From a virus (lineage: Duplodnaviria; Caudoviricetes): DNA of 54,264 bases. Numbering within the stretch: the first letter of the stretch is position 1; every line of letters starts with the position of its first letter. The stretch covers positions 1 to 54,264 of the IMG/VR virus record IMGVR_UViG_3300025141_000126; one strand, 5' to 3'. A model generated the notes under the pieces. The model made no database searches, was not told the origin of the DNA, and saw only the letters and a program-made list of their open reading frames with translations. Both the position numbers and the translations under genes were made by a program. Shown here one piece after another: positions 989 through 23,393 of the stretch.

Positions 989-993
989 ACCAC

Positions 994-3900
994 ATGGCAT
1001 ATCTTGACGACATTCTCCGAGAGTACGGTGTAGCTTCTGCTCGCCCTGCAGCACGCGCAGCTACGCACATGCCAACTCCCGAGGAAGAGGAAACCTACGA
1101 GGGGCTTGGTAGCAGCGCTCTGTCTGCACTGCAGTACATAGGAGGCTCACTTGACAAGCCCGGTTCTGCGGTGCGGGGATTGCTCGCTGGGCGTCCTGAT
1201 CAACTCCTAAATCTTATCCCATTCTCCGACTTCATGGGACTCACTGAAACAAGGAATCGCACCTCTGGTCGCGACCTCCTGCGGCAGTACGGAGCGATCG
1301 GGGGAAAGGATAATTGGTACAATTTCGCAGGCGGTTTAGCGCTTGAGATTGCGACCGATCCGTTAACATTCCTTGGGCCTTTAACGTCGGCATCTAAGAC
1401 TGCGGCTGGTAAGGCTGCGGCAAGAGCGGGGCAGTTCCAGCATCTCTCAGCAGCGGAGCGTGTTGGTGGTAGTCTTAACAAGGTAATGGACAAGATGGCG
1501 AGGGAGGCGGCGGCGCTCGGAAACGACACGGCGCTCAATGCGTTCAAACAGAACATCTCTCACACGATGAAGAAGATGAACCTGGACGAGGCTGGGCAAG
1601 CTGCGTTCTTGGAACAACCTCTAGCCGGTATGCTCAATGTCGGTATCCCCGGCATGCCAAGCATGCAGCGACAACTCGGTGCCGGTGCTGCACAGGGTAG
1701 CCGTACAATGAGAGCGGCTGAGGGTGTCGATGCGTTAATGGACGGGCTGAAGAGAGGGAAGATTCCAGAGGCTGTTCCTCTTGTCGGTGGTATGTCTCCG
1801 GGCACGATAATGTCTGAGGCGTTCAGCCCAAGTGCGTTGGGTCGCAAGATGTCATCTTCGCAGGCAGCAGTGCGATCTGCTACACCGCTCATTGAAGAGA
1901 CGATGAACATGTGGAAGTCCACACAGCAGGACTTGTACGACACTCTTAGAAGGCACGGGATCAGCCCAGAAGAAGCAACTCCAATGCTTGAGCGTGCTGG
2001 CCCGATTGGTGATGTCACTAAGCTACGCGATCGCATTAAGGACATTGAAGGGAACCATGGGGCACAGGCTGAACTGTTCGCTGACCTTTGGGATCTAACT
2101 CCTGCGGCTAAGGCAGAGGTTGCCCCAGGCCTGGAGAAGGTGTTCAAGCTATACGACGACATGCACAAGATGCAGGTCAATGCTGGTCTAGAACCGACAT
2201 TCTTCCACGGTGAGTACGCAGCGTACAGTCCGTTGAGAAGTAAGATACTCGACGAGACTGAGAACGTAACGCGACACATCGGCCAGAAGGATGAACTGCA
2301 ACGCGCTGTGAATAAGTCCAGGTACAAAGACCTCGACATGCCCGGCGGTGCGGCTGGTGTTGAGAGAGCGTTGCACGACAAGGTATTGCGTGCGATCAAC
2401 GACCGCAACGCTGCGGCGGCACTCAGTGATATCGTCTCCGATGAGGTGATGGATAATTTCTTTAAGCACGCCCAGGCCTCTGGCGTTGACTACACTCCGA
2501 TAGAGTTCCTGGGTCGGTGGGTGGACGATGGTCAGAAGGGTCGCCACTATGAGATGGGGGTCACTGATGAGGCTGGGGTGTTCACTCAGATAGACCACAT
2601 GCCAGCCCCGAACCTCTCTGAGGCACAACTCAAGGCCGCGAAGAAGCAGATTAAAGACGGCGTTGAACTATCTAGGGACACACTGCCTAAGCATCGCAAG
2701 TCAATTGATGCAGTTGATGAGGCTATCAATTACGCGAACGACAAGTACTTATATGAGACACCCGCCGCCGGGGCAGCTGCACGGGCGATGAAGGGTGGAT
2801 TCCTTGAGGAGGCGAAGAAGCTACTCGGCCCATCGGTAGAGGACATTAATAAAGCTGGTGTTGACCTAGCGGACCATGTACATCGCTCTAGTGGGATTGA
2901 TGACCTCCCGACCCCAGCCCAAGTCAAGGAGTCGTTCAATCAGCAGAACCCCGACTTCATTAACCAAAAGACAGACAAAGCAGCAGCTAAGGCTGCACGC
3001 AAAGCGGCACCGAACAAAGAGGCTGGCAAGGAGGCGGCTAGGCAGGTGATGGAAGCAGGTAAGGCTTCACGGGCAGAGCGGAAGGCTGCGATGGATGCAG
3101 CAAGAGATGCGATCAATGAGGCGAAGGCTTCAGCGAAGGTGGTGAAGGATGCGATGGGGCAGCAGGCGAAGAACTCGAAACTCTTATCACAAGTGGAGGG
3201 GTACACCGCAGAGAAGGCAATGGCGGCACTGCGGAAGGCGATGAAAGAAGGCAACTTGTCCCCTTCCACTACATGGGAAGTTGCGAGGGCAGCTAAAGAT
3301 AGACTGAAGGAGTTCGACTCTTGGATAGACAACCCCCGTGGAGATTGGTTAGAGGGGCATATAGAAAGAGCGGTCAAAGCGAAGGCTGAAGATGGAAGCA
3401 TTATCGGATCAACAACTGCAGGGGTCAAGGATGTACCGATGTCTGTTGACGACCTTTTGGGGGTTAAAGGGTTAAACGCAGAGCACACTAGGATGGGCAG
3501 TCCCCTCTCCCAAAAGAAAATCCAAGATCTAGCTGACAGTATCGCAAAGGATGGACTTGAAAATCCTCCGTTGGTTGTTGTTGATGTTGATGGTATCCCC
3601 TGGGTAAGCGAGGGTAATCATCGCATTCGAGCGGCGAAGGCTGCTGGACTAACTGAAATTCCAGTGGAGGTTCGGTGGCACGCTGGAGCAGAAGAGAGTG
3701 TTCAGGGTTGGTCTCTTAACGATATTGCACAGAAGGTGTCTCCCGGCGGCGGGGAACTACCCCCATCTTTAGCGAAGTTCGGTGGTAGCCTCGATGAGAT
3801 TGATGGGGCGATCAGAGCTGCTGATGCAAAGCTAGACCACGCAAAGGGCATCGCTGAGTTCAACGGTTCGGCACCGGCTAAGTTCGCAGATGAAGGGGCA

Positions 3901-5712
3901 CCGTTTTGGAACAACGAATATCGCACCGTCGCGAACGCTAAGATTGCACATGCGGCATACACGACCCGCAACGCTCGGGCTGCGACTATGGCGTTTGCTG
4001 AAGACGCTGCTGATGCCGCAGATCAACTGCCAGGACACGTCTCCCTCCCCGAGGCAATGCGGGAAGCGGGGATCACTGGCATGAACGCGAACCGGCGCAT
4101 TGCCGAGGATCTACTTTCTGCAAACAAGATTAGCCCCGAAGTCTTTGAAAACATCGCCAATGGCATAGCTGAAGATGGTGTTAATGTCCTCGACCAATTC
4201 ACCGTTCCGCATGGTACGATGAAGGATTTCGAGTTCCTGAAGAAGACAGCCGAGACTCCTGGTGCGTTGTTCCCAATCATCAACGCGATCGATGTCGCCA
4301 CGAATGTAACCAAGGCACACTTCACAATCACACGCCCATCGTTCCATGGTCGCAACGCACTCACCCTGATATGGCAGGACTTCCTCTCTGGTGGTCACAA
4401 GAATGTCACGGGGATGTACCGCGCTGTAAAGAATAAGATCACGCTGTTCACTAAGGACGGTGTGATCGAGGGGTCTAGTGACTGGGCTGTGTTCCACGGA
4501 ATGGACCTGACAGACGAGGCTGCGACTAATGTCCTTCGCAACCGACATGTGCTCCATGAAGTATCCGCACCTCACTCAGGTCAGATAACAGAGAAGGTCG
4601 GGCAAGCGTCTCATCGACCACCACCTCTATTCCAAGAGCAAGTGCCTGGGACCAAGCGGCAATCGACACTCAAGGGCGTGTTCAAGAAGATGAAGCCTGA
4701 TATACCGGTCGGCGTAAGCGGTTCGGCAAAGGCGAAGTCATACGCCCATCAGATCACCAACCCCACGGCACTACGAGGTGGAGCTACAGAAGCGGAGCAG
4801 TGGATTCCGATCAAGGTCGGTGAGGCTGCGGCAGACTTTGGTGAGACCACCGGTCGTTCCATGACGTGGCTGCGGAAGCTAGAGGAAGGGCAAAGCTGGG
4901 CTCAGGCATCGATCGAAACCAATGCCGCACATGTGGACTATAAGGCCCTCACACGGGTGGAGCGGGACTACCTCAAAAGAGTGATGCCTTGGTACACTTT
5001 CAACCGTAGGATGATTCCCTGGCAGCTCGGTGAGATCGCCCAGAATCCAGGCGGGATCGTCGCCCAGACCATCCGCGCCGCCGGTACACCAGAAGGGTTT
5101 GTACCTGAGCAGGCGGTTGGCGGTATCCCAGTGGGTGAGGAGAAGGACGGGATGCAGAAGTACGTCACCCTCGACCTGCCCCACGAGACGATCAACTCGC
5201 TGTTCAAGATCGAACCGACGATGCTTGGTACTGTGCAGCAGACAATGATGGGGCACATGGCACAGGGTCATCCACTCCTGAAGGGTCCAGCTGAAGTCGC
5301 GTTCGGTAAGAGTACCCACCGAGGGGGGCAGGAACTATCCAGCATGAGGGGTCCACTCACCCCATTGAATCCAAGCAATGAGGACTGGCGTCCAGGTGGC
5401 ACCGTCGTGAGTTCTATCATTGGCAATAGCCCTGTGATGCCCTACCTAACCCAACTGAAGAGCATCCGCGACGACCGCAAGTCAGTGCTGGAAAGGGGCA
5501 TAAACCTCCTCACAGGTATCTCCTCGCACGATGTGGACGTTGCTGCGTCTGAGGCTAGAGCGAAGGGCAAGCACGCCAGAGAGAAACTAAAGGAACAAGG
5601 GTGGCGTGAATTCAGCCGGTTGTATAACAACAGCGAGGTTCCGCTCACTGAGGAGCAGAAGTTGCTGGTCGCCGCAGAGAAGATGGTTGGCAAGCGACGG
5701 GCAAGCCTCTAA
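994..5712 (+). CDS. Large (1572 aa) putative internal virion/DNA-ejection protein with embedded ParB/Srx-like domain
   Basis: Ala/Gly-rich N-terminus (ALEIATDPLTF); ParB-like motif LADSIAKDGLENPPLV...SEGNHRIRAAKAAGLTEIPV near 3500-3680; C-terminal RVMPWYTFNRR-type region typical of podovirus-like internal proteins; last gene of the structural module. Confidence 0.7.
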   Translation: MAYLDDILREYGVASARPAARAATHMPTPEEEETYEGLGSSALSALQYIGGSLDKPGSAVRGLLAGRPDQLLNLIPFSDFMGLTETRNRTSGRDLLRQYGAIGGKDNWYNFAGGLALEIATDPLTFLGPLTSASKTAAGKAAARAGQFQHLSAAERVGGSLNKVMDKMAREAAALGNDTALNAFKQNISHTMKKMNLDEAGQAAFLEQPLAGMLNVGIPGMPSMQRQLGAGAAQGSRTMRAAEGVDALMDGLKRGKIPEAVPLVGGMSPGTIMSEAFSPSALGRKMSSSQAAVRSATPLIEETMNMWKSTQQDLYDTLRRHGISPEEATPMLERAGPIGDVTKLRDRIKDIEGNHGAQAELFADLWDLTPAAKAEVAPGLEKVFKLYDDMHKMQVNAGLEPTFFHGEYAAYSPLRSKILDETENVTRHIGQKDELQRAVNKSRYKDLDMPGGAAGVERALHDKVLRAINDRNAAAALSDIVSDEVMDNFFKHAQASGVDYTPIEFLGRWVDDGQKGRHYEMGVTDEAGVFTQIDHMPAPNLSEAQLKAAKKQIKDGVELSRDTLPKHRKSIDAVDEAINYANDKYLYETPAAGAAARAMKGGFLEEAKKLLGPSVEDINKAGVDLADHVHRSSGIDDLPTPAQVKESFNQQNPDFINQKTDKAAAKAARKAAPNKEAGKEAARQVMEAGKASRAERKAAMDAARDAINEAKASAKVVKDAMGQQAKNSKLLSQVEGYTAEKAMAALRKAMKEGNLSPSTTWEVARAAKDRLKEFDSWIDNPRGDWLEGHIERAVKAKAEDGSIIGSTTAGVKDVPMSVDDLLGVKGLNAEHTRMGSPLSQKKIQDLADSIAKDGLENPPLVVVDVDGIPWVSEGNHRIRAAKAAGLTEIPVEVRWHAGAEESVQGWSLNDIAQKVSPGGGELPPSLAKFGGSLDEIDGAIRAADAKLDHAKGIAEFNGSAPAKFADEGAPFWNNEYRTVANAKIAHAAYTTRNARAATMAFAEDAADAADQLPGHVSLPEAMREAGITGMNANRRIAEDLLSANKISPEVFENIANGIAEDGVNVLDQFTVPHGTMKDFEFLKKTAETPGALFPIINAIDVATNVTKAHFTITRPSFHGRNALTLIWQDFLSGGHKNVTGMYRAVKNKITLFTKDGVIEGSSDWAVFHGMDLTDEAATNVLRNRHVLHEVSAPHSGQITEKVGQASHRPPPLFQEQVPGTKRQSTLKGVFKKMKPDIPVGVSGSAKAKSYAHQITNPTALRGGATEAEQWIPIKVGEAAADFGETTGRSMTWLRKLEEGQSWAQASIETNAAHVDYKALTRVERDYLKRVMPWYTFNRRMIPWQLGEIAQNPGGIVAQTIRAAGTPEGFVPEQAVGGIPVGEEKDGMQKYVTLDLPHETINSLFKIEPTMLGTVQQTMMGHMAQGHPLLKGPAEVAFGKSTHRGGQELSSMRGPLTPLNPSNEDWRPGGTVVSSIIGNSPVMPYLTQLKSIRDDRKSVLERGINLLTGISSHDVDVAASEARAKGKHAREKLKEQGWREFSRLYNNSEVPLTEEQKLLVAAEKMVGKRRASL

Positions 5713-5720
5713 GAATTCTC

Positions 5721-5749
5721 TTGACCTCTCACGGCGAACGTGGTAGGAT
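5721..5749 (+). promoter_or_regulatory. Sigma70-type promoter
   Basis: TTGACC-17-TAGGAT with extended -10 TG, just after the virion gene. Confidence 0.6.
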
Positions 5750-5829
5750 AGGAATTCATCACGAAAATGGGTCAGCGACGTGACAAGCGTCCTGACCCGT
5801 GACCAACCCAGGATCGGACTGAGTCAGTA

Positions 5830-6045
5830 ATGAATAATGTAGTCAAAACGACGACGCATGTCAACGCATTCCCTCGCAGTTTCTTCACATACGGGTGTTT
5901 CGCTGTGCATCACGACACGATGGCATGGCATCTCGACAACATCCTAAGTCGCCCCCAGCGTCAAGTGATGGCGAATATGCACCAAGCCAACCCTCTAGCG
6001 GCGGTCTCCGCAGCAGTCTACAGGGGGGTGTATCATGTCCAATAA
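5830..6045 (+). CDS. Small hypothetical protein, possibly first of array A
   Basis: 71 aa ORF downstream of the promoter, overlapping the next start. Confidence 0.45.
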   Translation: MNNVVKTTTHVNAFPRSFFTYGCFAVHHDTMAWHLDNILSRPQRQVMANMHQANPLAAVSAAVYRGVYHVQ

Positions 6046-6241
6046 CAAGTTACCAGACGACACTCATGAGAAGGTCTCTGCAATCATGTGGGATGCGTTC
6101 GACGCAGTCACAAACACATGCCCTGTCTATGCTATTATGCCTACGGAGTGGACTGCAGTGGATCAAGCGACCGAGCGAGAGGGGACAGTTGAACAGGCAC
6201 TAGAGGATGCATTTGACTTTGGAGGAGTGTTTGATGGATGA
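6035..6241 (+). CDS. MDDT-family small protein (array A)
   Basis: MSNNKLPDDTH...; G-rich RBS; ends DG* overlapping the next ATG. Confidence 0.65.
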   Translation: MSNNKLPDDTHEKVSAIMWDAFDAVTNTCPVYAIMPTEWTAVDQATEREGTVEQALEDAFDFGGVFDG

Positions 6242-6410
6242 TACATACGGACTAATCGAGACTTGTACTCTTGCCGTGTACGACCAGTGCAGGAAACTGT
6301 GCCCACTAGATGATATGGTGGACCGCTACTGGAGGCGATGGGAGAGAGCGATCGACTGGAATACTAGCGAGTATACTGGTGAAGAAGCTACGAGGTTAGG
6401 CGATGGATGA
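6234..6410 (+). CDS. MDDT-family small protein (array A)
   Basis: GGAGGAG RBS; MDDTYGLIETC; ATGGATGA overlap. Confidence 0.7.
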   Translation: MDDTYGLIETCTLAVYDQCRKLCPLDDMVDRYWRRWERAIDWNTSEYTGEEATRLGDG

Positions 6411-6591
6411 TACATACAAGCGGATAGAGCAGATCTACAGCAAGGCTCGTGGTGAGTGTGCGATCGGATGTCCGGCCCACTACAAGTTCATGTTCCTTGA
6501 CTCACGCGAGGACAGCGAGATGTGGAATCTTAGGATGGCACTGTCTTCTGGCGTTGGCAATGAAGCCTGGAGGTTACGCAGCGATGGATGA
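6403..6591 (+). CDS. MDDT-family small protein (array A)
   Basis: MDDTYKRIEQI; ATGGATGA overlaps at both ends. Confidence 0.7.
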   Translation: MDDTYKRIEQIYSKARGECAIGCPAHYKFMFLDSREDSEMWNLRMALSSGVGNEAWRLRSDG

Positions 6592-6772
6592 TACAGCACA
6601 GAGGATACGCAACGAGACGCAGAAGGTGTTCGTGCAATGCAGCGAGGAGTGTGGCCCAACGACATGGGGATTTGGACTTGATGGGGTGGGCCAGACCAGC
6701 GTGGAGTGGGCACCGCAGGGATTGATAAGTTGGCAGGTGTATCAGTTGACATCGCCTACCCCGGAACAGTAG
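6584..6772 (+). CDS. MDDT-family small protein (array A)
   Basis: MDDTAQRIRNE; ATGGATGA overlap. Confidence 0.7.
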   Translation: MDDTAQRIRNETQKVFVQCSEECGPTTWGFGLDGVGQTSVEWAPQGLISWQVYQLTSPTPEQ

Positions 6773-7166
6773 AACAAGAAGAATGTGTTATGTGTAAGTT
6801 ACTCCCCCTTGATTCAACCAATGTAGATCGGAGCGAGATGGTACAACCTACCGTAAGCAGTCGTGTCGTTGGTCCATGTACATGGTGCGGGGTGCGGCGG
6901 CTGAACCCGATATCGTTCAGCGGAGTGGTCGGGGGTGCGATACTCACAGCACCCAGACTGCGTGAAAGACTTCGACTAATTCCAGGCAATGCCGTTAGAT
7001 ATTGTACCCTGGTGGCCCGACAGATACACTTAATTGTGTGGGGTCTACGTGGTTGCTCCATAATTGCTCAATACACACAACAAGCCTAGAAGCACAAAAG
7101 TGGACGCCGGATCTACCCTATATCTATAGGGCCGGTAAAGGGGTGAGGTCTAAATCAAAGGAGAGA

Positions 7167-7391
7167 ATGATGCATATGGATACGGAAATTAGGAAGATGG
7201 TCGGCAAGGATGGATGGTGGCACCTACAGAACCTCATCAAGAGCGAGTTCGGCAGACAGGTTGAGCACCACGTCTGGTGGGAGGTCATGAGTCCTGTCGG
7301 TCAGCAGCTACCAGAGAACGAATGGGCAATCGGGCACGTCGGTCGAAGCGTACTGTTTGATGTGATATCACTAGGAGATAACGATGAATGA
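7167..7391 (+). CDS. MDDT-related small protein (array B)
   Basis: AAGGAG RBS; (MMH)MDTEIRKMVGKDGWW. Confidence 0.65.
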   Translation: MMHMDTEIRKMVGKDGWWHLQNLIKSEFGRQVEHHVWWEVMSPVGQQLPENEWAIGHVGRSVLFDVISLGDNDE

Positions 7392-7587
7392 GATGGAGAT
7401 GTTCGCCAGCGATGTCCACCTCTGGGCACTGCTGGGGTTGATACGAGACCACGCCCCAGCGGCTGTAGAGGAAGCTGTATGGAGCGAGTTAAAGCGTGGG
7501 GTCCAGGTCGAGACTATCACGCACCAGATAGCAGTTAGGTCTGGGGTTGAATTGTACGCACTAACGCGAGGAGATAACGATGGATGA
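7384..7587 (+). CDS. MDDT-related small protein (array B)
   Basis: AGGAGATAACG-ATG junction; MNEMEMFASDVHLW. Confidence 0.65.
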   Translation: MNEMEMFASDVHLWALLGLIRDHAPAAVEEAVWSELKRGVQVETITHQIAVRSGVELYALTRGDNDG

Positions 7588-7768
7588 AGCAATCGCCCGG
7601 CTAGTGGGCAAAGACTACCTGTGGGGTATAGATGCTGAACTTGGACAGATGAGTTCAGCGTTGAGCAGGCAGGTCTGGTACGGCGTGAAGTCACCGTCGT
7701 CCCACGAGATGACAATAGAAATACCAGTAGAAAACGGGGTACGGGATCATGTCCGACGAATGGATTAA
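7580..7768 (+). CDS. MDDT-related small protein (array B)
   Basis: AGGAGATAACG-ATG junction; MDEAIARLVGKDYLW. Confidence 0.65.
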   Translation: MDEAIARLVGKDYLWGIDAELGQMSSALSRQVWYGVKSPSSHEMTIEIPVENGVRDHVRRMD

Positions 7769-7946
7769 GCGACTCGGCAGCGATAGCCACTTGTGGAACT
7801 TAGAGCGGGAGATCTCCAAGCATTGCGCAGAGGCTGACTACATTGTCTGGCGCAGCGTAAAAGGCAGTGTCGATCAAAAGCTAGGGAGGCTAGAGAACGT
7901 CGTTCATATCGGGGTCTTTCAACAACAACATTCCATTGGTCCTTGA
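7749..7946 (+). CDS. MDDT-related small protein (array B)
   Basis: MSDEWIKRLGSDSHLW; aligns by eye with the other array B members. Confidence 0.6.
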   Translation: MSDEWIKRLGSDSHLWNLEREISKHCAEADYIVWRSVKGSVDQKLGRLENVVHIGVFQQQHSIGP

Positions 7947-7971
7947 CTTCTAGCCACCCCGCCCCTACGAT
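7943..7971 (+). promoter_or_regulatory. Sigma70-type promoter upstream of the ERF-like gene
   Basis: TTGACT-17-TACGAT. Confidence 0.55.
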
Positions 7972-8004
7972 ACACACATACACCACATTTCTAGGAGAAC
8001 TACC

Positions 8005-8730
8005 ATGTCAGACTCAGGAACCTACGACGCTGGACCTACCTTCTACAAGGCACTACTCGCCGCATGTAAGGAAGTCACCGCACTCGGTCACGACAGCACC
8101 AGCAACAGGTACAAGTACACATCCGCTGAGGCGATCATCGCGTACTCTCGCGACCTGCTCAACAAGCAAGGCATTATTGTCGAACGGCATGAGTATTCAT
8201 TAGGCGAACCCATTAGCGAGAAGGACACTTTCGGCAACGCCTCGATCACGCGCAGTGTCACGGTCATGTTCCGCGTCGTGCATGAAAAAGGGGAGCGCCA
8301 ATACTACACGGGTGTGTTCCCAGCGTGTCTAACGAAGGCCATGCCGTGGGACAAAGCGGTCGCTGCCGCACTCACCACCAGCCTCGCCTACTTCCTGAGA
8401 GATCTCCTACAGATCCCACGCACCGGAGCCGGGGAAACGATGGACGAGCGCAACGACCACCCCGACGAGACACCTGCACCGAAGGGAGCAAAGCATCCGA
8501 AGAGGACAAAGAAGTCTCCCGCTGAGGTGGCCGACGACAAGGCACAGGTCAACGCAGCGAAGGGGCTATGCCTGGAAATGTCAGGGGCAAAGACCCTCAA
8601 GGCACTGGAAGTCCTCCGTGATAAGTTCCATGATGGGAAGATGAACTTCACCCAAGCCCTGACAGGCAAGGTGCGAACGGCGTACCGGAAGCGATTCCGC
8701 GAACTCGGTGGCGTGGTCGATGCGAAGTGA
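8005..8730 (+). CDS. ERF-family single-strand annealing recombinase
   Basis: YKYTSAEAII...LNKQGI and AAALTTSLAYFLRDLLQIP resemble the ERF motifs; AGGAG RBS. Confidence 0.65.
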   Translation: MSDSGTYDAGPTFYKALLAACKEVTALGHDSTSNRYKYTSAEAIIAYSRDLLNKQGIIVERHEYSLGEPISEKDTFGNASITRSVTVMFRVVHEKGERQYYTGVFPACLTKAMPWDKAVAAALTTSLAYFLRDLLQIPRTGAGETMDERNDHPDETPAPKGAKHPKRTKKSPAEVADDKAQVNAAKGLCLEMSGAKTLKALEVLRDKFHDGKMNFTQALTGKVRTAYRKRFRELGGVVDAK

Positions 8731-8923
8731 TGACACTCACACCACCATAGACGTGGTGACCAACCCCAAACCCGGCGGGTATTGTGCAGCTGTAAGCTAT
8801 GTGGTTATCCAAGGCACGGCTTGCGGCGACCTTCTCCACGCCGCTGTCATAGATGGAGTGGAGCATGGAACAGGATCTATTCGAGTTCGCGATACCCCCA
8901 GTACCAGAGGTGAGGTTACCTAA
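8720..8923 (+). CDS. MDDT-family small protein
   Basis: MRSDDTHTTIDVV; overlaps the ERF stop and the helicase 5' end. Confidence 0.45.
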   Translation: MRSDDTHTTIDVVTNPKPGGYCAAVSYVVIQGTACGDLLHAAVIDGVEHGTGSIRVRDTPSTRGEVT

Positions 8924-10553
8924 GCCCGCCTTTGATCCCCGGTTTTACCAGAGCGAGGCAGTAGATAATGCCTTTGAAGCCTGGGATTCTGGTGCTGTGG
9001 GGTGTCTGCTAGTACAAGCAACCGGCACCGGCAAGACTGCGACTGGTTGCTTTATCGTCAAACGCTGGTTAGAGCAGGGGCCGGATTATCGTGTTCTGGT
9101 AGTTCTCCACGAACGGCCCTTGTTCTACCAGTTCTCAGATGACATCGAGAAGATCCTCCGTGTCACCCCCGGTCTAGAGGCAGGAGCAGATCATCGCCTG
9201 CAGCTCCCTATCCCGAAGATCGTAGTGGCGATGCGTCAGTCTCTTGTTGATCGCGTTCGCAACGGGCAGATCGTATCTCGACTTGGCAAGTACGACACCG
9301 ACAAGAAGTACCTCCTGATCCTCGACGAAGCACACAGATACAAGAAGGGCCTGAAGCAGGTCGCTCCGATCCTAGAGCGTTTCACGGATGCTCGCCGGTT
9401 GCTGCTCACCGCCACGCCAGAACGAGGGGACAAGGTTTCGCTCGCTAGTCTCGGGGAAGTGGTGGTCGCTGACTACCCGCACACGTCCCTGGATGGCAGG
9501 CCAAGTGCTTGCGGCGATGGATTTGTCGTTGACTTTGAACAGCATTTTGTCACAATCAATTCAGTCGATTTACAGAAAGTGAAGGGACATAAGTCAAAGG
9601 ACTGGAGTGCAGAGGATCTGTCCGACAAGCTGTCCCAGGTACGTGCCCTGGACGAGATCATCCAGCCGTCACTCGACATCGTACAAGACAAGAGGTCACT
9701 GGTGTTCTGCGTGGATCGCGCGATGAGCAGGGCATTGGTAGATCGGATCAACCACAAGTACATACCGGGTGCAGCGAGATGGATCGACGCCACCCTCCCC
9801 ATGGAAGAGCGGAAGGAAATACTAGCAGCACACAAAGCGAACGAGTTTCAGTTCTTGTGTGTCGTAGGATTATGCAGAGAGGGTTACAACGACCCGTACA
9901 TAGAGGCTGTAGTGTGTGCAAGACCAACGAAGTCAGCGTCACTCGCGGAACAGATGAAGGGTCGCGGGTGCCGTGTATTGCCAGGAGTTATTGATGGACT
10001 GGAGACTCGCGAGGAACGGTTGGATGCGATTAAGAACAGCGATAAGGACCGATGTATCGTCGTTGATCTGGTCGGGGCAACAGGGTTGGCTGGGAATCAA
10101 ACAGTGGCAAGCATCCTCGCCAAGGGACTGCCGGATCATCTCGTCGACCTTGTCACAGAGAGGGCGAATCTCCTTGCCAAAGAAGCCTCAACGGAACTTT
10201 CACTTAAGGAGATCGTCGAGAAGACCGCCGAAGACCTTCTAGAGGAGGACCGCATCGCAGAGGAAATGGTCGAGCGGGAGAGGTTGCGTTACATCGAGAA
10301 TCAAATCGATGCTGCCCGACTTGCTGGTCTTACCCTCGACGTGGACTACACCTCCAAGATAGTAGATCAGGGCGAAGGGACAGTACTAAAATTCAGGCGA
10401 CCTGAGATGAGGGTGAGCAACGGCAAGTACAAAGGCAAACTGTTGTCGCGTGTACCCACTGGCTACATCGAGTTCATGATCACGAAGCTGAAGCCAGGAT
10501 GGTATCGATCGAAATTCCAGGCAGAGTTGAAGTATAGGAGGCCACAGCTATGA
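8853..10553 (+). CDS. Superfamily 2 DEAH-box DNA helicase (ResIII/Irc3-like)
   Basis: PRFYQ, ATGTGKT, DEAH, LLTATPERGD, EGYNDP, QMKGRGCR; C-terminal GKYKG...VPTGY domain. Confidence 0.9.
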   Translation: MEWSMEQDLFEFAIPPVPEVRLPKPAFDPRFYQSEAVDNAFEAWDSGAVGCLLVQATGTGKTATGCFIVKRWLEQGPDYRVLVVLHERPLFYQFSDDIEKILRVTPGLEAGADHRLQLPIPKIVVAMRQSLVDRVRNGQIVSRLGKYDTDKKYLLILDEAHRYKKGLKQVAPILERFTDARRLLLTATPERGDKVSLASLGEVVVADYPHTSLDGRPSACGDGFVVDFEQHFVTINSVDLQKVKGHKSKDWSAEDLSDKLSQVRALDEIIQPSLDIVQDKRSLVFCVDRAMSRALVDRINHKYIPGAARWIDATLPMEERKEILAAHKANEFQFLCVVGLCREGYNDPYIEAVVCARPTKSASLAEQMKGRGCRVLPGVIDGLETREERLDAIKNSDKDRCIVVDLVGATGLAGNQTVASILAKGLPDHLVDLVTERANLLAKEASTELSLKEIVEKTAEDLLEEDRIAEEMVERERLRYIENQIDAARLAGLTLDVDYTSKIVDQGEGTVLKFRRPEMRVSNGKYKGKLLSRVPTGYIEFMITKLKPGWYRSKFQAELKYRRPQL

Positions 10554-10738
10554 GTGGTGTCATGTACCAGATACAAAAGGTCGTGCGGTTTGACCTGGAA
10601 AAAGTACTGGAGAGTCACGTTAACCACAATGTCTCACTCGATGCTCGCATGGGCATGAGATGGGAAGTATACAGGCCCATCGACGAACTGGTAGACGGCG
10701 TTGTATTCTCGGCGGTACGGCAGGAGTGTCGGGAATGA
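10550..10738 (+). CDS. MDDT-related small protein (array C)
   Basis: ATGA overlap; RWEVY motif shared with its neighbours. Confidence 0.6.
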   Translation: MSGVMYQIQKVVRFDLEKVLESHVNHNVSLDARMGMRWEVYRPIDELVDGVVFSAVRQECRE

Positions 10739-10920
10739 ACACCACGCACTTGATACACAAGGCGGTATGGGGCAACGTGGAGGAGATCCTGAATAAACAC
10801 AGCAACCCGAACCTCACCCTTGGTGTACGACTAGAGGTGAGGTGGGCTGTCCATGCAGTGATCGACTCGCAACTAGACGACCATGTGGTTCGTGGCGTAT
10901 GGGAGACCCGCAAGCTGTGA
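10735..10920 (+). CDS. MDDT-related small protein (array C)
   Basis: AGGAG RBS; ATGA overlap; MNTTHLIHKAVW...RWAVH. Confidence 0.65.
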   Translation: MNTTHLIHKAVWGNVEEILNKHSNPNLTLGVRLEVRWAVHAVIDSQLDDHVVRGVWETRKL

Positions 10921-11135
10921 ACGCCAGACACCGGATCAACAATGAACTGACCACTCACATGGAGATAGAACTGAACACAGAGATTGCCTCAGCAGTCAGG
11001 TTTTCTGCGAGGCAGGCATTACGGTGGCCTGCGTATGACTTGACAGAGGTAGAGGTAAACCACCATATTGAACGCACGATATTATCCGAAGTTCGTGTTT
11101 TGCGAACTACCGCCCACCCCCGGAGAGACACATGA
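10917..11135 (+). CDS. MDDT-related small protein (array C)
   Basis: GTGA overlap; GGAG RBS; ...RWPAY. Confidence 0.55.
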   Translation: MNARHRINNELTTHMEIELNTEIASAVRFSARQALRWPAYDLTEVEVNHHIERTILSEVRVLRTTAHPRRDT

Positions 11136-11494
11136 AGATAACGATCCACGAAGCAACTAAGACCCCCATCACAGTGAAGGACGACCGACCGTTCCTCAAG
11201 GAACCATCTAGTGTGTATGTCATCGATGAGACCCGAGGCCTATGGCGTCGAGTCAAACCAAAGGCGTACCAAGACCACAAGATGAGCAGCGACCATACCA
11301 TTCGGGGGGTATACCAAACCCCGGAGAATATCTTCCTGTTCATCCGAGACACCAGCCTAGAGAAGATGTTGCTAGCTGTGTGCGGTCCAGCCCCCTGCTG
11401 CGGTGCAAAAAAAGATCCAGAAAAAGCACTTGACTCTTCGTTCGACGCTTCCTACACTGAATGTAGCGAGGACGAGACGGCAATCGTCGCCTGA
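11132..11494 (+). CDS. Hypothetical protein
   Basis: ATGA overlap; GGAGAG RBS. Confidence 0.55.
   Translation: MKITIHEATKTPITVKDDRPFLKEPSSVYVIDETRGLWRRVKPKAYQDHKMSSDHTIRGVYQTPENIFLFIRDTSLEKMLLAVCGPAPCCGAKKDPEKALDSSFDASYTECSEDETAIVA
11430..11458 (+). promoter_or_regulatory. Sigma70-type promoter for the DUF6745-like operon
   Basis: TTGACT-17-TACACT preceded by A-tracts. Confidence 0.55.
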
Positions 11495-11573
11495 TCGTTA
11501 TGAACATCCCGCCTCCCCCTGTGCCATGCCCTTCACGCAGGGGGAGGCACCTTTTATCAAGGAGCGAGTGAAA

Positions 11574-12815
11574 ATGCCTACGACGATAAATGAACTCACA
11601 GACGAGCAGACAGCCCAGTTCGGAGAGTTCCGCGACAAGTGGATAGCCAACGGTCTGGACACATCCCCAGCTAACTTCTCACTAGCCGGTGACGGTCTGA
11701 ACGGTTGCTACGGTGCAGCGAAACTCGCTAGCCCCGAGATCGTACTGACATTTGCCAGTCCGTTAGCCACGGTCATCGGCGGCTGCATGGGAAACATCGC
11801 CTTCCCAATGACACGGGGTCTGGCTGCAGGCACTGACATGACGACCGCTGCCGAGAAACAGGATACTAATTCTCGGGAGTCACCACCTGAACTTAAGTCG
11901 CCGCCACATGCCCGACGATCCCCCACTGGGTCAGAGGTTCATCCAGGCGATAAAGCCTTGGCAACGTCCCAAGAGTACATGGACATGGACGATCCAGGGG
12001 AATATGAAGTTCGCCACGCAGTTCTCGACTCTTTCAAGTCCGAGTCCGACTTCAACCTCATCACCGACATCTGGAATGAGACCAGCAACCAGCTCCGAGC
12101 ACAAACCGGTGTGGATGCTGCCCACCCAGCGTTTCGTCGCCTATCCGGTGGTATCAACGCAGAAGTCTGGAAGACTACCAAGGACCGCATCTCTGATGAG
12201 TGGCGTCAATACCGTGGTGGTAATCTCTGGAGTAGTTGGTACGCATACGTCACGTACTTTCGCGATGCGTGCAACTGGGAAAATCCCGCCTTGGAATCCT
12301 TCGCACACGACGAGAAGTGTGCAACCAACGCTGGTTGGATCTGGTACAGCCGCAAGGTAGCTGCCATCTCCGACCGCCCCAACATCCTGCTTCGTAACGA
12401 GGATGGGGAATTGCATTGTGAAGACGGTCCTGCAATGGCTTGGCGTGACGGCTGGGCATTGTGGCGAGTCAATGGCGTAGAGGTGGATGAGCAAATCGTC
12501 ATGACACCTGAGACGCAGACCGTGGAGCAGATGCATGCCGACGATAATGCCGACCGCCAATCCATTCGCATCGAGCGATACGGATGGGCACAGTACCTCA
12601 AGGACTCCGGTGCTAAGGAGGTAGACAAAGCTACGGACGACGTGTCAGGTTGTCCCCAGGTTTTGTACCGTACTCACAATGGTGGACAGCGGCTTGTAGT
12701 CGTCTGTCAGACTGGTCGAGTCTTTGCGATGGGCGTCCCTAGCGACGTTGAGACTTGCGAGCAGGCCCAGAAGTGGTTAGCCCCCGAAGGTATCAATATC
12801 ATCGCTGCGACGTAG
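11574..12815 (+). CDS. DUF6745-like protein
   Basis: N-terminal LTDEQ...RDKWIANGLDTSPA; C-terminal DRPNILLRNEDGELHCEDGPAMAWRDGW...NGVEV...ERYGW; AAGGAG RBS. Confidence 0.75.
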   Translation: MPTTINELTDEQTAQFGEFRDKWIANGLDTSPANFSLAGDGLNGCYGAAKLASPEIVLTFASPLATVIGGCMGNIAFPMTRGLAAGTDMTTAAEKQDTNSRESPPELKSPPHARRSPTGSEVHPGDKALATSQEYMDMDDPGEYEVRHAVLDSFKSESDFNLITDIWNETSNQLRAQTGVDAAHPAFRRLSGGINAEVWKTTKDRISDEWRQYRGGNLWSSWYAYVTYFRDACNWENPALESFAHDEKCATNAGWIWYSRKVAAISDRPNILLRNEDGELHCEDGPAMAWRDGWALWRVNGVEVDEQIVMTPETQTVEQMHADDNADRQSIRIERYGWAQYLKDSGAKEVDKATDDVSGCPQVLYRTHNGGQRLVVVCQTGRVFAMGVPSDVETCEQAQKWLAPEGINIIAAT

Positions 12816-12861
12816 AGTGCGTTGATTTCCGTGAACTAGTTCTAAAGCAAGGAAGAAAAAG

Positions 12862-13323
12862 ATGAAGACAACAATCGATTCGATTACCGAATGTGCCGCT
12901 CAGATCCACAAGGGCGAGCACACTGAAGTGAAGCCTGGGATGTCTGTTCGTATGTCCGAAGCAGCCGCACCCCAGGACTCTATCCGACAGGGGGATCTCT
13001 ACCTCACTGTCGCGTTGAGCGTTCCCGAGGGCTACACTAAAGCCACGAAGGCGAATGTTCAACTCGTCCCCGGCAACACCAAGGGTGCTCGTCACTGTCT
13101 TGACAGCCTTGAAGGTGTTACCATGTACTACCCGCCGGGTTTCGAGTCGGCTGGTGATTCTTGGGACGCTCTGGAAGGCCCCGTCCTTGAGTTGTCGAAG
13201 GAACGTAAGGTTCTACACCCGACTCACGGACACGTAACGATCCCCGCCGGATTCACCGTTGGTTGCACATACCAGCGGGAATGGGATCAGGAGCAACGTC
13301 GCGAACGTCGCAACGCCGACTGA
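12862..13323 (+). CDS. Conserved His-rich beta protein, recalled as the usual neighbour of DUF6745 genes
   Basis: RQGDLYL...GNTKGARH...HPTHGHVTIPAG...QREWD. Confidence 0.65.
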   Translation: MKTTIDSITECAAQIHKGEHTEVKPGMSVRMSEAAAPQDSIRQGDLYLTVALSVPEGYTKATKANVQLVPGNTKGARHCLDSLEGVTMYYPPGFESAGDSWDALEGPVLELSKERKVLHPTHGHVTIPAGFTVGCTYQREWDQEQRRERRNAD

Positions 13324-13336
13324 TGCTCACTCGCTG

Positions 13337-13383
13337 CAGCCGCTGCTATGCTCAAGGATGTTCATGGCAGCGGCTGTTTTTTT
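13337..13383 (+). terminator. Rho-independent terminator
   Basis: CAGCCGCTGCTATG/CATGGCAGCGGCTG stem followed by a T run. Confidence 0.75.
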
Positions 13384-13402
13384 ATATGCACGGAGGTGAG
13401 CG

Positions 13403-13786
13403 ATGACACGGCACATTACCAACGACCTACGCCTCTCGCGTGACGAGAAGCCAAAGGTACGCGACGAGTTTCTTATCTTACTGGGTGCCGCTCTGGCCGA
13501 CCCGGCGTACTGCGTCCTCCTCTTAGACGCCATCCCCGACGACATGGACTCCTGGGGTTCAGGCGATCTCGACGCATGGGTACAGGCGCTACGCCTAGAG
13601 AACCCAACTCTCCTCGCTGACTGCTGCGAGCACATCACGCACGAACGCCCCGACTCCGGTGGTACGATACGCGATGCATGCCTGTCGCAGATACGCACGA
13701 GCTTCTCCGACCGCCTCGCCAAGCTGCAACGACTCCGCAGCTTGTACCGGGAATCCCTAGAGGTCAAGCTGGGGTTGAAGAAATGA
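13403..13786 (+). CDS. Hypothetical protein
   Basis: GGAGGT RBS; 127 aa. Confidence 0.6.
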   Translation: MTRHITNDLRLSRDEKPKVRDEFLILLGAALADPAYCVLLLDAIPDDMDSWGSGDLDAWVQALRLENPTLLADCCEHITHERPDSGGTIRDACLSQIRTSFSDRLAKLQRLRSLYRESLEVKLGLKK

Positions 13787-14049
13787 ATCTCAAGCTGAAC
13801 GGCAAGCGATATAAACTACGCTACGTCTCAGGCGTGTCGTATTTAGGGGAGTGTGATCCCCCGTCGCTCGCAGGCAAAGAGATTCGGATCAACGCAGATG
13901 TCACGGGTGAGAAATTATTAGACACTTACCTACACGAATTTCTACACGCACTGTACTGGCACATCGACGAGGATCACATCGCTAAACCAGCGGAGGATCT
14001 AGCCCGTGCGCTGTGGCGGCTAGGCTATCGAATGAAGGAGGATGAGTGA
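13783..14049 (+). CDS. Small HExxH zinc metallopeptidase-like protein
   Basis: LGECD...IRIN...LDTYLHEFLHA; ATGA overlap. Confidence 0.65.
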   Translation: MNLKLNGKRYKLRYVSGVSYLGECDPPSLAGKEIRINADVTGEKLLDTYLHEFLHALYWHIDEDHIAKPAEDLARALWRLGYRMKEDE

Positions 14050-14279
14050 TGAACCTCATTAAGGACATCAAGAACCTACCTAAGTCAGTGCGGAAGCGGG
14101 GATGGGTAGAACGTCTGCCCGAGAAGAAACGCAAAGAACTAGAAGCGGTCGTCAAGGCATGGGAGGCTGACGAGTTCCGTGGACTAACGAAGCTGGATGT
14201 TGCACGGAAGTGTGTCGAAGCATTGGATCTGCGGGTCCACGTCACGACCGTGTCACGCATATTCCCTACTCTAGATTAA
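14046..14279 (+). CDS. Small basic protein, possible HTH
   Basis: Coupled overlap; GGAGG RBS. Confidence 0.55.
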   Translation: MMNLIKDIKNLPKSVRKRGWVERLPEKKRKELEAVVKAWEADEFRGLTKLDVARKCVEALDLRVHVTTVSRIFPTLD

Positions 14280-20929: not shown

Positions 20930-21110
20930 GGTCCAGCATCTCCACAGTGATAGCCTCAGCGACTCGATCTTCCGGTAGTGCATCTCGCACGGCGCAGTGG
21001 ACTTGCAGCCACACATCAGGGTGTAAGTCCCTATTCCCGCCACGACACCACCGCAATGCCCCCCACGGTACGTCAAACACAGCACTCTCTATTGCGTTAC
21101 GTGTGTCCAT
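20922..21110 (-). CDS. MDDT-family small protein (array D)
   Basis: GGGAG RBS; MDTRNAIESAVFDVPW. Confidence 0.6.
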   Translation of the reverse strand: MDTRNAIESAVFDVPWGALRWCRGGNRDLHPDVWLQVHCAVRDALPEDRVAEAITVEMLDRG

Positions 21111-21301
21111 CGACTGTCACTCCCTAGTTCATCCATTGCATCGTGGACCGCCCACAGGACCGCATTGGAACCAAGTTCGTCCTCTACTCCCAAGCATACA
21201 CCACCCCAAATAGCACCCCAGACGCTCCTTGCATGCACCATTAGTGCCCGGTCAATGTCTTGACGAAACAGCTTGCCCATTTGTTCGTAGGTGTCATCCA
21301 T
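21089..21301 (-). CDS. MDDT-family small protein (array D)
   Basis: GGGAG RBS; MDDTYEQMGKL. Confidence 0.65.
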   Translation of the reverse strand: MDDTYEQMGKLFRQDIDRALMVHARSVWGAIWGGVCLGVEDELGSNAVLWAVHDAMDELGSDSRWTHVTQ

Positions 21302-21303
21302 TG

Positions 21304-23181
21304 TCACTCCCAGTCACGTTGAGTTGCGGTATTGTCCAACTGCTTATCCACCGACCTAGCGAGAGATAACTCAATCGTCTCGCTCTCACCAGCAAGAGCT
21401 ACTAAACCATCGCTGGAGAACTTACCCTCTAGTGCGGTGGCAGCGGCTAACTTGCGTGACATGAGGTGGATCATATCCTCCTGCATGGTGTCATTATACC
21501 GCAGGTAGTAGGTACGGCAAGGCAAAGGCTGAGCAATACGCCAGTGCCTACGACTAGCTTGGCGAAGCGTAAAGAGAGAAACCGGCGTCTCGTAGAAGAT
21601 AAGGGTGGGGAAGTTGTATGCTCCCCCTTTGTCGAACAGGTCTAGCCCAGTCTCGACCAGTTTCGGGTGCGAAATACAGACATCGCAGTCGGGTGCATGC
21701 TCTCTGATCCAGGCCTCGCGCTGATTCAGCTTGACCTTCGATCGTAGTACCGCCACCTTCAATCCAGCGTCGGTTAGTATCCTCTCTAGCCTCGCAACAA
21801 CGTCGCGTTTGGTCGTATTTAGCACATATACCCATGCTTTTCTGCCCTCAGACCCCTCCCTGAGACACAAATCTAGCAACTTTTGCTCTTTGGGGTAGAT
21901 CCGATCAGGAGAAAACGTCGCTAAATTGCAGACCGGCACGAATACACCGTCGTCATCGAGGTATCCTTGGGTGTCCCAGCCGAAGGGATGGTCGATGTAG
22001 TTCAGTAGTACGTTGTTCATCGTCCCACACATGCGTAGGTCACGCCTCGCCGCGAGTTGCATCGCCTTCTTGTACAGATGTGCCCCCGCCCTCAGGTACT
22101 CTTGATGGATATCGGGATCGAGGTTCACTCCAACAACGCTCTCCATGAGTGGCGGCAGATCATCGCTGACCTCATCGAGGGACAAGAACACCGAGCACCC
22201 GAGCAGGTGTCGCCCAAAGAGAGTCGGCATGATCCCCGGTCGCAGCGACATCGACTTCGACGACCGCTTCTTACCCTTCGCCTCACTCACGCTATGCTTA
22301 GACTCGATCCTCCCATACAGAGCGGAGAATGCGACCGAGTCCTCATATCGATGCCCCTCACCGAGCAGAGTCTGGGGGTTCACCTTCCAGAGCAGCGGCC
22401 TTAAGTGTTCTGCATACCCACCGATCAACGTGCCAGTGAGTAGGATCGTCTTATCAACCGACGCCATCAGCGATCCCACGGCTCGTGCCTGCAGGGTAGT
22501 GGCCGACTTCTCCTCGTGGGCCTCATCGACCACCAGGAAGTCAAAGAACCCCCGTAGCTTGCGGTGGATGTACTTCGCGGGTGACCAGCGGTCTTGAATA
22601 CGCTTGGTTCGGGTGTAGGTCCAGAGTTGCTCCCCGCACTCACACTGCCGCCGCTTCGACGCCATCTGTTTCGGGGTGTAGTCAATGTGACTTCCGCAGC
22701 CAGGGCACTTGGTCGCCTCGATCGGACGATGATCCGCACCCAGCTTGGCGGTATCCCGAGCGATGATAAACCACCCATGACCTGACAGCTTAGTCACATC
22801 CTGCCACGATCGGATCTGCGTGACCGGAATGTCGTCGCCTATCGTCTCGCGTATCTCCCGCTCCCACTTCTCGGTCACATGCCCTGGAGCGAAGACCAAT
22901 GCACGATACGGCTGATCGCGGTGAAACGTGGCAATGGCACAGGTGGTCTTACCAACCCCCATCTCGCCGCCTAGGAACAAACCCGAGTGTTGAGTCAAAG
23001 CGGCCTGGGAAGCGGCTACAACGTGTGCCTGGGCTGGTTTTAGGGTACGCAGCAGATGGAACTCCGGCAGATCGTCCATCCCCGGCGTATGCATAGGGGA
23101 GATGGCGTTGCGAGCGTTGGATTGTAGGTCCGTACCGTACTCAGCGACGTACTCATCGAGGTTAGAGATGGATGATAGCAC
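21304..23181 (-). CDS. SNF2-like/SF2 helicase with zinc-ribbon insert
   Basis: GEMGVGKT, DEAH, LTGTLIGG, VETGLDL, RQASRRHWRI; CPGC...CECG insert. Confidence 0.85.
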   Translation of the reverse strand: MLSSISNLDEYVAEYGTDLQSNARNAISPMHTPGMDDLPEFHLLRTLKPAQAHVVAASQAALTQHSGLFLGGEMGVGKTTCAIATFHRDQPYRALVFAPGHVTEKWEREIRETIGDDIPVTQIRSWQDVTKLSGHGWFIIARDTAKLGADHRPIEATKCPGCGSHIDYTPKQMASKRRQCECGEQLWTYTRTKRIQDRWSPAKYIHRKLRGFFDFLVVDEAHEEKSATTLQARAVGSLMASVDKTILLTGTLIGGYAEHLRPLLWKVNPQTLLGEGHRYEDSVAFSALYGRIESKHSVSEAKGKKRSSKSMSLRPGIMPTLFGRHLLGCSVFLSLDEVSDDLPPLMESVVGVNLDPDIHQEYLRAGAHLYKKAMQLAARRDLRMCGTMNNVLLNYIDHPFGWDTQGYLDDDGVFVPVCNLATFSPDRIYPKEQKLLDLCLREGSEGRKAWVYVLNTTKRDVVARLERILTDAGLKVAVLRSKVKLNQREAWIREHAPDCDVCISHPKLVETGLDLFDKGGAYNFPTLIFYETPVSLFTLRQASRRHWRIAQPLPCRTYYLRYNDTMQEDMIHLMSRKLAAATALEGKFSSDGLVALAGESETIELSLARSVDKQLDNTATQRDWE

Positions 23182-23393
23182 TATTTCCCCCCTCCCTTCC
23201 CCAGGCTGGCGAGGACATCAGCCACTATAAACCACAGTCTATCGTCGATAGGGTCCGAGACAACGTCTTCCACCATGTTCTCAATCTCGGCATGCACCTG
23301 AAGTCGCAACTCAGGGTCAACGGCGATTTTAATTTCATCGTAGACGTAGTGATCTACTACCGATTCAATTTCTGTTGATGTCACGTCGTCCAT
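23181..23393 (-). CDS. MDDT-family small protein (array E)
   Basis: GGGGAG RBS; MDDVTSTEIESVV. Confidence 0.65.
   Translation of the reverse strand: MDDVTSTEIESVVDHYVYDEIKIAVDPELRLQVHAEIENMVEDVVSDPIDDRLWFIVADVLASLGKGGGK

Follow-up and report, generated by a model that had tools for sequence, protein, structure and literature searches.

What fills the middle of the DUF6745 protein encoded at 11574-12815 of the IMG/VR virus record IMGVR_UViG_3300025141_000126, and is it related to the many mini-proteins encoded by the same genome? The window analysed here is the whole record, a linear stretch of 54,264 base pairs that is about 56% complete by estimate and that is found in public sequencing runs labelled as marine metagenome. 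The initial annotation had described, between conserved N- and C-terminal domains, a segment with an MDxDD start and an EVW helix, and had proposed that the mini-proteins are stand-alone versions of this segment, which together with the gene and a His-rich partner would form a scaffold with a variable module. The reading favoured here, which we hold to be moderately probable, is that the gene is a DUF6745 member with a decayed array of four-residue repeats (tetrads) in a conserved cassette, that the mini-proteins are free tetrad-type helices, and that the whole is a host-interaction module. The features on which it rests are collected in Table 1.

The gene is a member of the Pfam family DUF6745. 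Its protein matches PF20530 over residues 244-354 (12303-12635) with an E-value of 4.9e-23 and 81.9 bits against a cut-off of 27 bits (82.9 bits in a genome-wide Pfam scan), and the same domain is present in 62 of 62 homologues. An alignment of DUF6745 homologues (A1) shows that about 90 N-terminal and about 200 C-terminal residues are conserved, with P63, W222, H281, G285, G293, G301, I333, E334, G337, W338 and T380 invariant in the 16 sequences from which they were read. The AlphaFold2 model, built with 60 aligned homologues, has a mean predicted local distance difference test (pLDDT) score of 83.2 and a predicted template modelling score of 0.76. Within it, the N-terminal domain reaches block means of 85-98 over residues 1-70 and declines to 58 by residues 81-90, the linker is modelled as disordered over residues 94-132 (pLDDT below 50 at 94-98, 103-105 and 108-132), and four helices with block means of 67-81 are predicted for residues 136-211. 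The family assignment of the initial annotation and its description of a segment behind a low-complexity linker, with MDMDD at 11979 and EVW at 12162, are therefore borne out, and so is the variable repeat middle that it ascribed to the family.

DUF6745 is widespread in phages, where one scan confirmed 126 viral stretches; the family comparisons reported here cover 80 viral loci, to which the window's own gene is added where 81 frames are counted. The family plan consists of an N-terminal domain, a tandem array of tetrapeptides that varies in copy number, and a conserved C-terminal domain. In alignment A1 the middle of the relatives is made of tandem tetrapeptides, such as SQVESQVR, DQLRGQLC, NNVWDNVG or NATDNATR, and Tandem Repeats Finder (TRF) detects an internal array of 12-nucleotide (nt) units, with a copy number between about 7 and 120, for nearly all DUF6745 open reading frames (ORFs) of the 80 loci. 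Protein autocorrelation finds the tetrad repeat in 55 of 81 frames, a count in which ORFs truncated at a locus edge are scored as misses; the complete ORFs without the repeat are those of the loci L014, L026, L029, L038, L067, L071 and L072 and that of the window. In the window's gene TRF finds no 12-nt array, nor is there a protein repeat. The array is missing, and its place is taken by the disordered linker and a unique helical segment of 76 residues.

We infer that this segment is a decayed repeat array and not an inserted mini-protein. A matrix of four columns was trained on 54 other DUF6745 proteins (column 1, V 64% and L 19%; column 2, R 29%, G 20% and W 15%; column 3, D 33%, A 28% and S 15%; column 4, Q 35%, S 31% and A 18%), and 105 proteins of the window were ranked by their best 32-residue windows. 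The second rank falls on residues 146-177, inside the segment, and ranks 1, 3 and 4 are taken by mini-proteins. In alignment A1 the stretch 'GGINAEVW-KTTKDRISDEWRQYRGGNLW' of the window stands opposite '...DAQVH-KLNCKAIRDGWRFYRGGNLW' of the homologue P0003; AEVW is thus aligned with AQVH, and the 'EVW helix' corresponds in the alignment to the last repeat unit together with the conserved junction to the C-terminal domain. The segment evolves under purifying selection, with a ratio of non-synonymous to synonymous substitution rates (dN/dS) of 0.18 in comparison with L082, which, like L083, is a metagenome contig collinear with the window. The C-terminal domain is 97% identical to that of L082 in amino acids, with a dN/dS of 0.06.

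The mini-proteins are real genes under purifying selection, as four of them have dN/dS values of 0.26, 0.42, 0.36 and 0.37 against L082; the row 'mini7204' of this comparison, which had a wrong start in place of the true one at 7167, is disregarded. The three that the initial annotation had named exist (MDIDDTY at 35942 on the plus strand, DNEVWDEM in 23393-23590 on the minus strand and SNEVWAVV at 43423 on the plus strand). The most striking property of several mini-proteins is a hydrophobic residue at strictly every fourth position, a rhythm that resembles the tetrad array of the DUF6745 family. When a run is defined as V, I, L, M or F at every fourth position with one mismatch allowed, and is compared with 200 shuffles, the mini-proteins at 10550, 10735, 23181 (minus strand) and 23393 (minus strand) and the 3' part of 7002-7391 have runs of 13, 12, 15, 10 and 11, respectively, each with p 0.000 and with shuffle means of 4.0-4.8, while the runs of these proteins at periods 3 and 5 reach no more than 3-5 positions. 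Comparable runs of at least 10 are rare: the 79 other loci contain 6774 small ORFs that do not belong to DUF6745 genes, and, if alternative frames of the L009 second DUF6745 paralogue are set aside, a single such run (L065, minus strand) passed the filters. A Fourier test for period 4 in 40-residue windows was replaced by the run-length and matrix tests, because non-coding frames scored as high in it as the mini-proteins.

Two further features tie the mini-proteins to one another. The dipeptide VW occurs 17 times in proteins of up to 80 residues, often near position 30, where 7.5 are expected (p 0.002), whereas larger proteins show no enrichment (15 against 14.9 expected); this recurrent motif, too, recalls the repeats of the DUF6745 family. 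At least seven mini-proteins start with M(T/M)MDD(T/V) or MDIDDT (MTMDDT, MMDDT, MDDVT, MDDT, MDIDDT), and such MDDT-like N-termini, which are found at 21089-21307(-), 23181-23759(-), 44091-44321, 35942-36136, 6234-6410 and 6584-6772, are far too frequent for chance. Profile hidden Markov models (HMMs) also match across subgroups, set A to the protein at 23181 with 15.6 bits and set B to that at 10735 with 12.0 bits. Beyond the window, Pfam and PHROGs searches with 10 plus 10 mini-proteins give nothing below E 0.01, and a word-based search of 5.8 billion clusters with the mini-protein at 10735 returns its own cluster only. The gene at 10550 is a presence/absence polymorphism in natural populations: it is absent from L083 and from L082, where the gap has exactly the size of the gene (10555-10739 of the window), and in two sequencing runs of separate studies there are contigs that bridge the site with a skip of 185 nt.

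A predicted link between a mini-protein and the DUF6745 protein comes from modelling of a complex, which the initial annotation had proposed and which was carried out with the DUF6745 protein (alignment A2), its partner (alignment A3) and the mini-protein 10735-10920 as the scored chain. This one mini-protein is predicted to dock, with interaction prediction scores from aligned errors (ipSAE) of 0.82, 0.81 and 0.79 over the runs, against 0.00 for the best of three controls, namely two unrelated proteins of 61-62 residues and a job in which the first chain was swapped for an unrelated protein. The runs have at least 91% of their contacts in common, with a partner pLDDT of at least 81, and all listed contacts of the mini-protein lie on the DUF6745 chain, at residues 3-8, 16-28, 45-51, 63-68, 159, 163, 203-229, 235-260 and 272-303. 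The interface comprises 43 residues of the mini-protein and includes all 13 of its period-4 positions (p 0.0056, hypergeometric). A weak signal comes from substitutions between the window and L082, since 1 of 19 in the core falls in the predicted interface, where 4.1 are expected.

Neither the DUF6745 protein nor the partner has a related solved structure detectable by Foldseek, VIA-align or PDB profile, and therefore the docking result is not the recall of a solved complex. Foldseek against the PDB gives no match at E ≤0.001 for either model; the best Z of VIA-align in its wide setting is 5.9 for the DUF6745 model (8syi_E, residues 138-204, 62 aligned, root-mean-square deviation 3.6) and 3.3 for the partner, both in the chance range; and profile searches of PDB sequences with alignments A2 and A3 return 0 matches each.

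The second link is found in the locus L026 of an unrelated phage, in which a DUF6745 gene without an array (9761-10597, 278 residues) is followed by a partner (10700-11122). The pair is flanked on the same strand by about nine (7363-9084) and three (11391-11902) ORFs of 55-87 residues, which start with MNRSQL, continue as (xSQL)n and end with LE(R/K)DSE; together they are one array of 135 copies of a 12-nt unit that is divided into ORFs. This locus and the complex prediction are two independent observations that connect mini-proteins with DUF6745.

The alternative that survives best states that the gene is an ordinary DUF6745 member with a diverged middle, that the mini-proteins are amphipathic early proteins of small size without any relation to it, and that both the period-4 look and the docking are coincidental. 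We regard it as rather unlikely, and a good number of results speak for it and against the reading favoured here. Free period-4 mini-proteins lie within 10 kb of DUF6745 in 1 of the 80 other loci and are missing from the neighbourhood in 79, so they are not a general part of the DUF6745 system, and within the window most of them lie at a large distance from the cassette. When only loci with complete ORFs are counted, free mini-proteins occur in 2 of 8 array-less ones (the window included) and in 0 array-bearing ones, a post hoc comparison that is not significant once the window is excluded. In the calibration of the ipSAE mark, 58 of 80 solved complexes pass, as do 2 of 110 mismatched pairs; the docking job, with three chains and alignments made for this analysis, stands outside this calibration, it covers one mini-protein, and its score is a prediction of binding. 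Within the family, the residues of the predicted interface are no better conserved than the rest of the core (means 0.389 and 0.462, one-sided p 0.97). All tetrad-matrix scores are negative log-odds, which places both the segment and the mini-proteins far from canonical repeats, and for the entire DUF6745 protein the period-4 run is not significant.

On the same side stands the direct comparison of the segment with the mini-proteins, which is not significant by sequence or by profile. When the segment is compared with 71 small proteins by the Smith-Waterman method, the top score is 41, which is matched by 21.5% of shuffles; the three mini-proteins named by the initial annotation are outside the 12 best of the 71, the two that have z-scores being at 1.4 and 1.5 and the third having entered the comparison as the ORF frame 43191-43886. 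HMMs made from 3, 8 and 17 mini-proteins score the segment at -0.2, 2.7 and 3.5 bits, values that are equalled by 65, 11 and 7 of 500 shuffles, and hhalign gives a probability of 3.3% for the mini-protein alignment against the family alignment. What makes coincidence the less convincing account is the combination of the margin between the docking score and all three controls, with its recurring contacts, of the first four ranks in a matrix trained on DUF6745 proteins only, of the free tetrad-repeat proteins beside the repeat-less pair of L026, and of the three mini-proteins that stand about 440-1000 nt upstream of the window's gene.

A different kind of explanation operates at the level of DNA, and we consider it very improbable. 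The 12-nt arrays would be slippage-prone contingency sequences and the mini-ORFs decayed arrays that are coding by accident and have no function. The copy numbers of the arrays, the division of a single 135-copy array into the small ORFs of L026, and the polymorphism of the gene at 10550 would all agree with it, but TRF finds no DNA tandem repeat in the mini-proteins of the window, the four dN/dS values mentioned above are those of constrained genes, and the units of L026 retain their own start (MNRSQL) and end (LERDSE).

The least probable of all is that the segment at 11979-12205 is an embedded homologue of the MDDT-type mini-proteins, with the free ones as its stand-alone copies: it resembles them in length (about 76 against 60-70 residues) and in being helical, the HMMs of 8 and 17 mini-proteins beat 97.8% and 98.6% of shuffles, and the sole hhalign match falls inside it (residues 154-176), but the bit scores, the hhalign probability and the Smith-Waterman result given above, the lack of short homologues and a position homologous to the tandem array of the family, whose last unit accounts for AEVW, leave little room for it. 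The MDxDD start is not a shared feature, as MDMDDPG of the window is replaced by MEMPNAE in the L082 orthologue (about 84-85% identical), and six-frame translation of the window contains EVW 9 times and MD.DD twice. A word-based search of 5.8 billion clusters finds no protein of 30-226 residues sharing the segment at E ≤1. Among 1.84 billion representatives, phmmer finds no small protein that matches it, returning only the orthologue P0002 (about 84-85%) and six long proteins of 530-3669 residues with repeats of the 'PGEYEVTY...' type (E 1e-7 to 6e-4). Judged by these sequence comparisons, the likeness of the segment to the mini-proteins at the level of motifs appears to be chance, save for 'EVW', which would reflect a tetrad unit. 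The module idea of the initial annotation accordingly fails where it makes the mini-proteins copies of the segment, and persists in a changed form, based on the period-4 rhythm, the VW dipeptide, the predicted docking and the L026 locus.

With the decayed array and the free tetrad-type helices as the favoured reading, a mechanism may be sketched. The mini-proteins would act as free-standing tetrad-type helices, and the one at 10735-10920 is predicted to bind the core formed by the N- and C-terminal domains through its period-4 stripe, beside the decayed internal segment. The variable part would be a repeat element that is either internal or supplied as a mini-protein, the constant part would be the C-terminal domain with the partner, possibly as a metal site, and the cassette would serve as a host-interaction module of the early region. 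A bolder version, which we put forward only tentatively and think unlikely as a whole, makes DUF6745 a scaffold for a tetrad element that is provided in cis, by a slippage-prone array, or in trans, by a library of period-4 'VW' mini-proteins docking to the same N/C core. Array-less phages such as the window and L026 would then vary the element through gain, loss and divergence of mini-genes, and the C-terminal domain and the His/Asp partner would carry out the activity.

Several other loci illustrate how far tetrad arrays can extend. The DUF6745 ORFs of L012 (6533-10810) and L013 (7802-10858) are giant, with about 1419 and 1012 residues, of which roughly 1000 and 670 are of the tetrad type. 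In L009 there is a second DUF6745-like paralogue (5542-6930), which has an (xSQL)n array and lies 3 kb upstream of the other copy, and some phages therefore have two DUF6745 copies; the array seen outside the main ORF of this locus belongs to the paralogue and was rejected as a candidate for free mini-proteins. The array of L004 was likewise set aside, as it is part of a different protein of 207 residues (490-1113) that ends in DAAW/AAAW repeats; this protein is unrelated, and tetrad arrays therefore occur on other scaffolds too. A literature search on tetrapeptide repeats in phages found nothing relevant among the titles and abstracts listed.

Next to the DUF6745 gene lies a gene for a partner protein of 153 residues, and the two are a near-obligatory pair in phages, which agrees with the two-gene unit of the initial annotation. 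The partner profile, which the window's partner matches with E 1.7e-45, matches in 65 of the 80 loci, always on the strand of the DUF6745 gene, and in 64 of the 80 the partner adjoins that gene, 35 times downstream and 29 times upstream; in L037 the match falls within an over-extended frame. Thirteen of the 15 loci without a partner match have the DUF6745 gene at the locus edge, and in L014 and L076 both flanks are visible and hold no partner.

The partner family shares the motifs QGD, GxxxGxxH and HPxH, and in its 31 homologues the residues Q43, G44, D45, G71, G75, H78, H119, H122 and the last residue, D153, are invariant. Since only 6 of the 153 residues are His, three of them invariant (H78, H119 and H122), the protein is not His-rich in composition, contrary to its first description. 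Its AlphaFold2 model has a pLDDT of 88.2 and is mostly beta; a structural neighbour in the ESM Atlas, labelled PF31129, reaches template modelling scores of 0.61-0.66, and the partner itself has no Pfam family. The family phrog_27831 is matched by 15 of the 31 homologues (best E 2.4e-16), whereas the window's own copy has no PHROG match at E 0.01. An identification as VirE2 was rejected, as 1 of 31 members matches and the scores are 16.1 bits against 27 and 20.5 against 1019. L084 has at 1-4055 a tandem of four genes in which MORN-like repeats are joined to the C-terminal ~135 residues of DUF6745, with one partner gene behind them, and these fusions suggest that the C-terminal half and the partner are the constant part of the system.

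In comparison with L082, a near-identical phage, the pair behaves as one discrete diverged block. Identity per 60-nt window is 60/60 at 11178-11537, falls to 16-59/60 at 11598-13337 and returns to 60/60 from 13338 to at least 14057. The mosaic is sharp, with identical stretches at 11178-11590 and 13338-14100 and with its edges at the start codon and the terminator; outside the linker indel the cassette is 73-98% identical. The block is recognised by its synonymous divergence (dS), which is 0.73 for the DUF6745 gene and 0.36 for the partner and 0.00-0.03 for the flanking genes.

The initial annotation had given the unit a promoter and a terminator of its own, and the latter agrees with a strong, terminator-like hairpin followed by seven U residues. 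The promoter is not established, because sites of this quality occur in the region at the frequency expected by chance (2 against 1.9) and because a terminator-like hairpin lies 3' of the site, between it and the start codon. The region of this hairpin, 11490-11580, folds with -32.4 kcal/mol (z -2.9), and the hairpin might either terminate the unit that precedes it or act as an attenuator in the leader.

Table 1. Positions of the cassette, its parts and signals, and of the mini-proteins and neighbouring genes in the window (residues are abbreviated as aa).
Feature	Position	Strand	Remarks
DUF6745-family gene, 413 aa	11574..12815	+	Pfam PF20530; ATG start; AAGGAG 9 nt upstream
N-terminal domain, residues 1-93	11574..11852	+	conserved T9, Y46, P54, S62, P63; contains most of the N-terminal share of the predicted mini-protein interface
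Low-complexity linker, residues 94-135	11853..11978	+	shorter and of different sequence in the L082 orthologue
'MDMDD...EVW' segment, residues 136-211	11979..12206	+	non-repetitive helices at the position of the relatives' tetrapeptide array
Tetrad-register remnant VRHAVLDSFKSESDFNLITDIWNETSNQLRAQ, residues 146-177	12009..12104	+	matrix rank 2/105, z 3.1, p 0.01
Conserved C-terminal domain, residues 212-413	12207..12812	+	Pfam match, alignment A1
Partner gene, 153 aa	12862..13323	+	alignment A3, 31 homologues
Mini-protein, 62 aa	10550..10738	+	13/14 period-4 positions hydrophobic; paralogue of 10735, BLASTP E 7e-7
Mini-protein, 61 aa	10735..10920	+	12/13 period-4 positions V/I/L/M/F; dN/dS 0.26
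Third tandem mini-protein, 58 aa	10959..11135	+	dN/dS 0.42
Mini-protein MDDVT..., 70 aa	23181..23393	-	strongest period-4 run of the window; tetrad-matrix rank 1/105
Mini-protein with DNEVWDEM, 65 aa	23393..23590	-	period-4 run 10
Mini-protein with VRDRVWSGVLRRV, 76 aa	41383..41613	+	run 7, p 0.01; tetrad-matrix rank 4/105
Sigma-70-like hexamers TTGACT-17-TACACT	11430..11458	+	9/12 matches; weak
GC-rich 13-bp hairpin, then CACCUUUUAU (U-tract)	11511..11548	+	25 nt upstream of the DUF6745 start
Intrinsic-terminator-like hairpin plus U7	13336..13384 (hairpin 13336-13377)	+	-30.2 kcal/mol, z -4.3
ERF recombinase	8005-8730	+	
Helicase	8853-10553	+	followed by three small ORFs, a 120-aa ORF, the DUF6745 gene and the partner

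The cassette sits in the early, replication and recombination region of the plus strand. The helicase orthologue of L082 (3939-4855) and L083 (4525-5414) has an interruption of about 900 nt that is absent from the helicase of the window, possibly because an intein or a homing endonuclease has inserted there; relatives were also sought with the helicase as a single protein, and none were found. Just 3' of the cassette, the ORF 13678-14049 encodes the motif HEFLH and weakly matches a SprT-like Pfam family (E 0.022, below the cut-off), and the 1572-residue protein at 994-5712 has as its only assignment a weak ParB_N match of 22.3 bits, also below the cut-off. A megablast search of 11000-14000 against the phage collection and an Rfam scan of 10400-13500 give zero matches, PADLOC matches neither the DUF6745 protein nor the partner, and a search of a full-text library found no paper naming DUF6745 or PF20530. 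No RNA run is among those listed for the stretch, which contigs of the runs X5 and X23 cover only in part.

The analysis provides an anatomy of the DUF6745 family, with a core, a hypervariable tetrapeptide array and an obligatory partner that has a putative metal site. It also offers a hypothesis for tiny phage ORFs, which usually are unannotated: some of them may be trans-acting repeat elements that bind a defined scaffold. If true, this would be a new route by which phages diversify a protein module, and it would also help to find out what many orphan mini-proteins do.

Among known systems, the closest is Pfam DUF6745 itself, with which the window's protein shares the HMM match, the N- and C-terminal domains and the adjoining same-strand partner, although it lacks the 12-nt/tetrapeptide array of most relatives and has a linker and unique helices instead. 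For the partner the closest family is phrog_27831, which about half of its homologues match, while the copy of the window remains below threshold. The window and L026 both combine an array-less DUF6745 gene and an adjoining partner with small, free, same-strand period-4 proteins nearby, but those of L026 are near-perfect tandem tetrads with common ends, whereas those of the window are diverged, non-repetitive in DNA and scattered over the genome. The MORN fusions of L084 have the C-terminal ~135 residues and the partner in common with the window and differ in carrying MORN-like repeats in place of the N-terminal domain and tetrads, in four tandem genes. Pentapeptide-repeat and other short-period repeat proteins are similar in that their units are short, constant in length and provided with one hydrophobic position each. 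The mini-proteins were rejected as members of the pentapeptide-repeat family, since they have no Pfam match and their period-5 runs of 3-5 are at background against period-4 runs of 10-15; the period here is 4, and the corresponding region of the DUF6745 protein is modelled as helices and not as a beta-helix.

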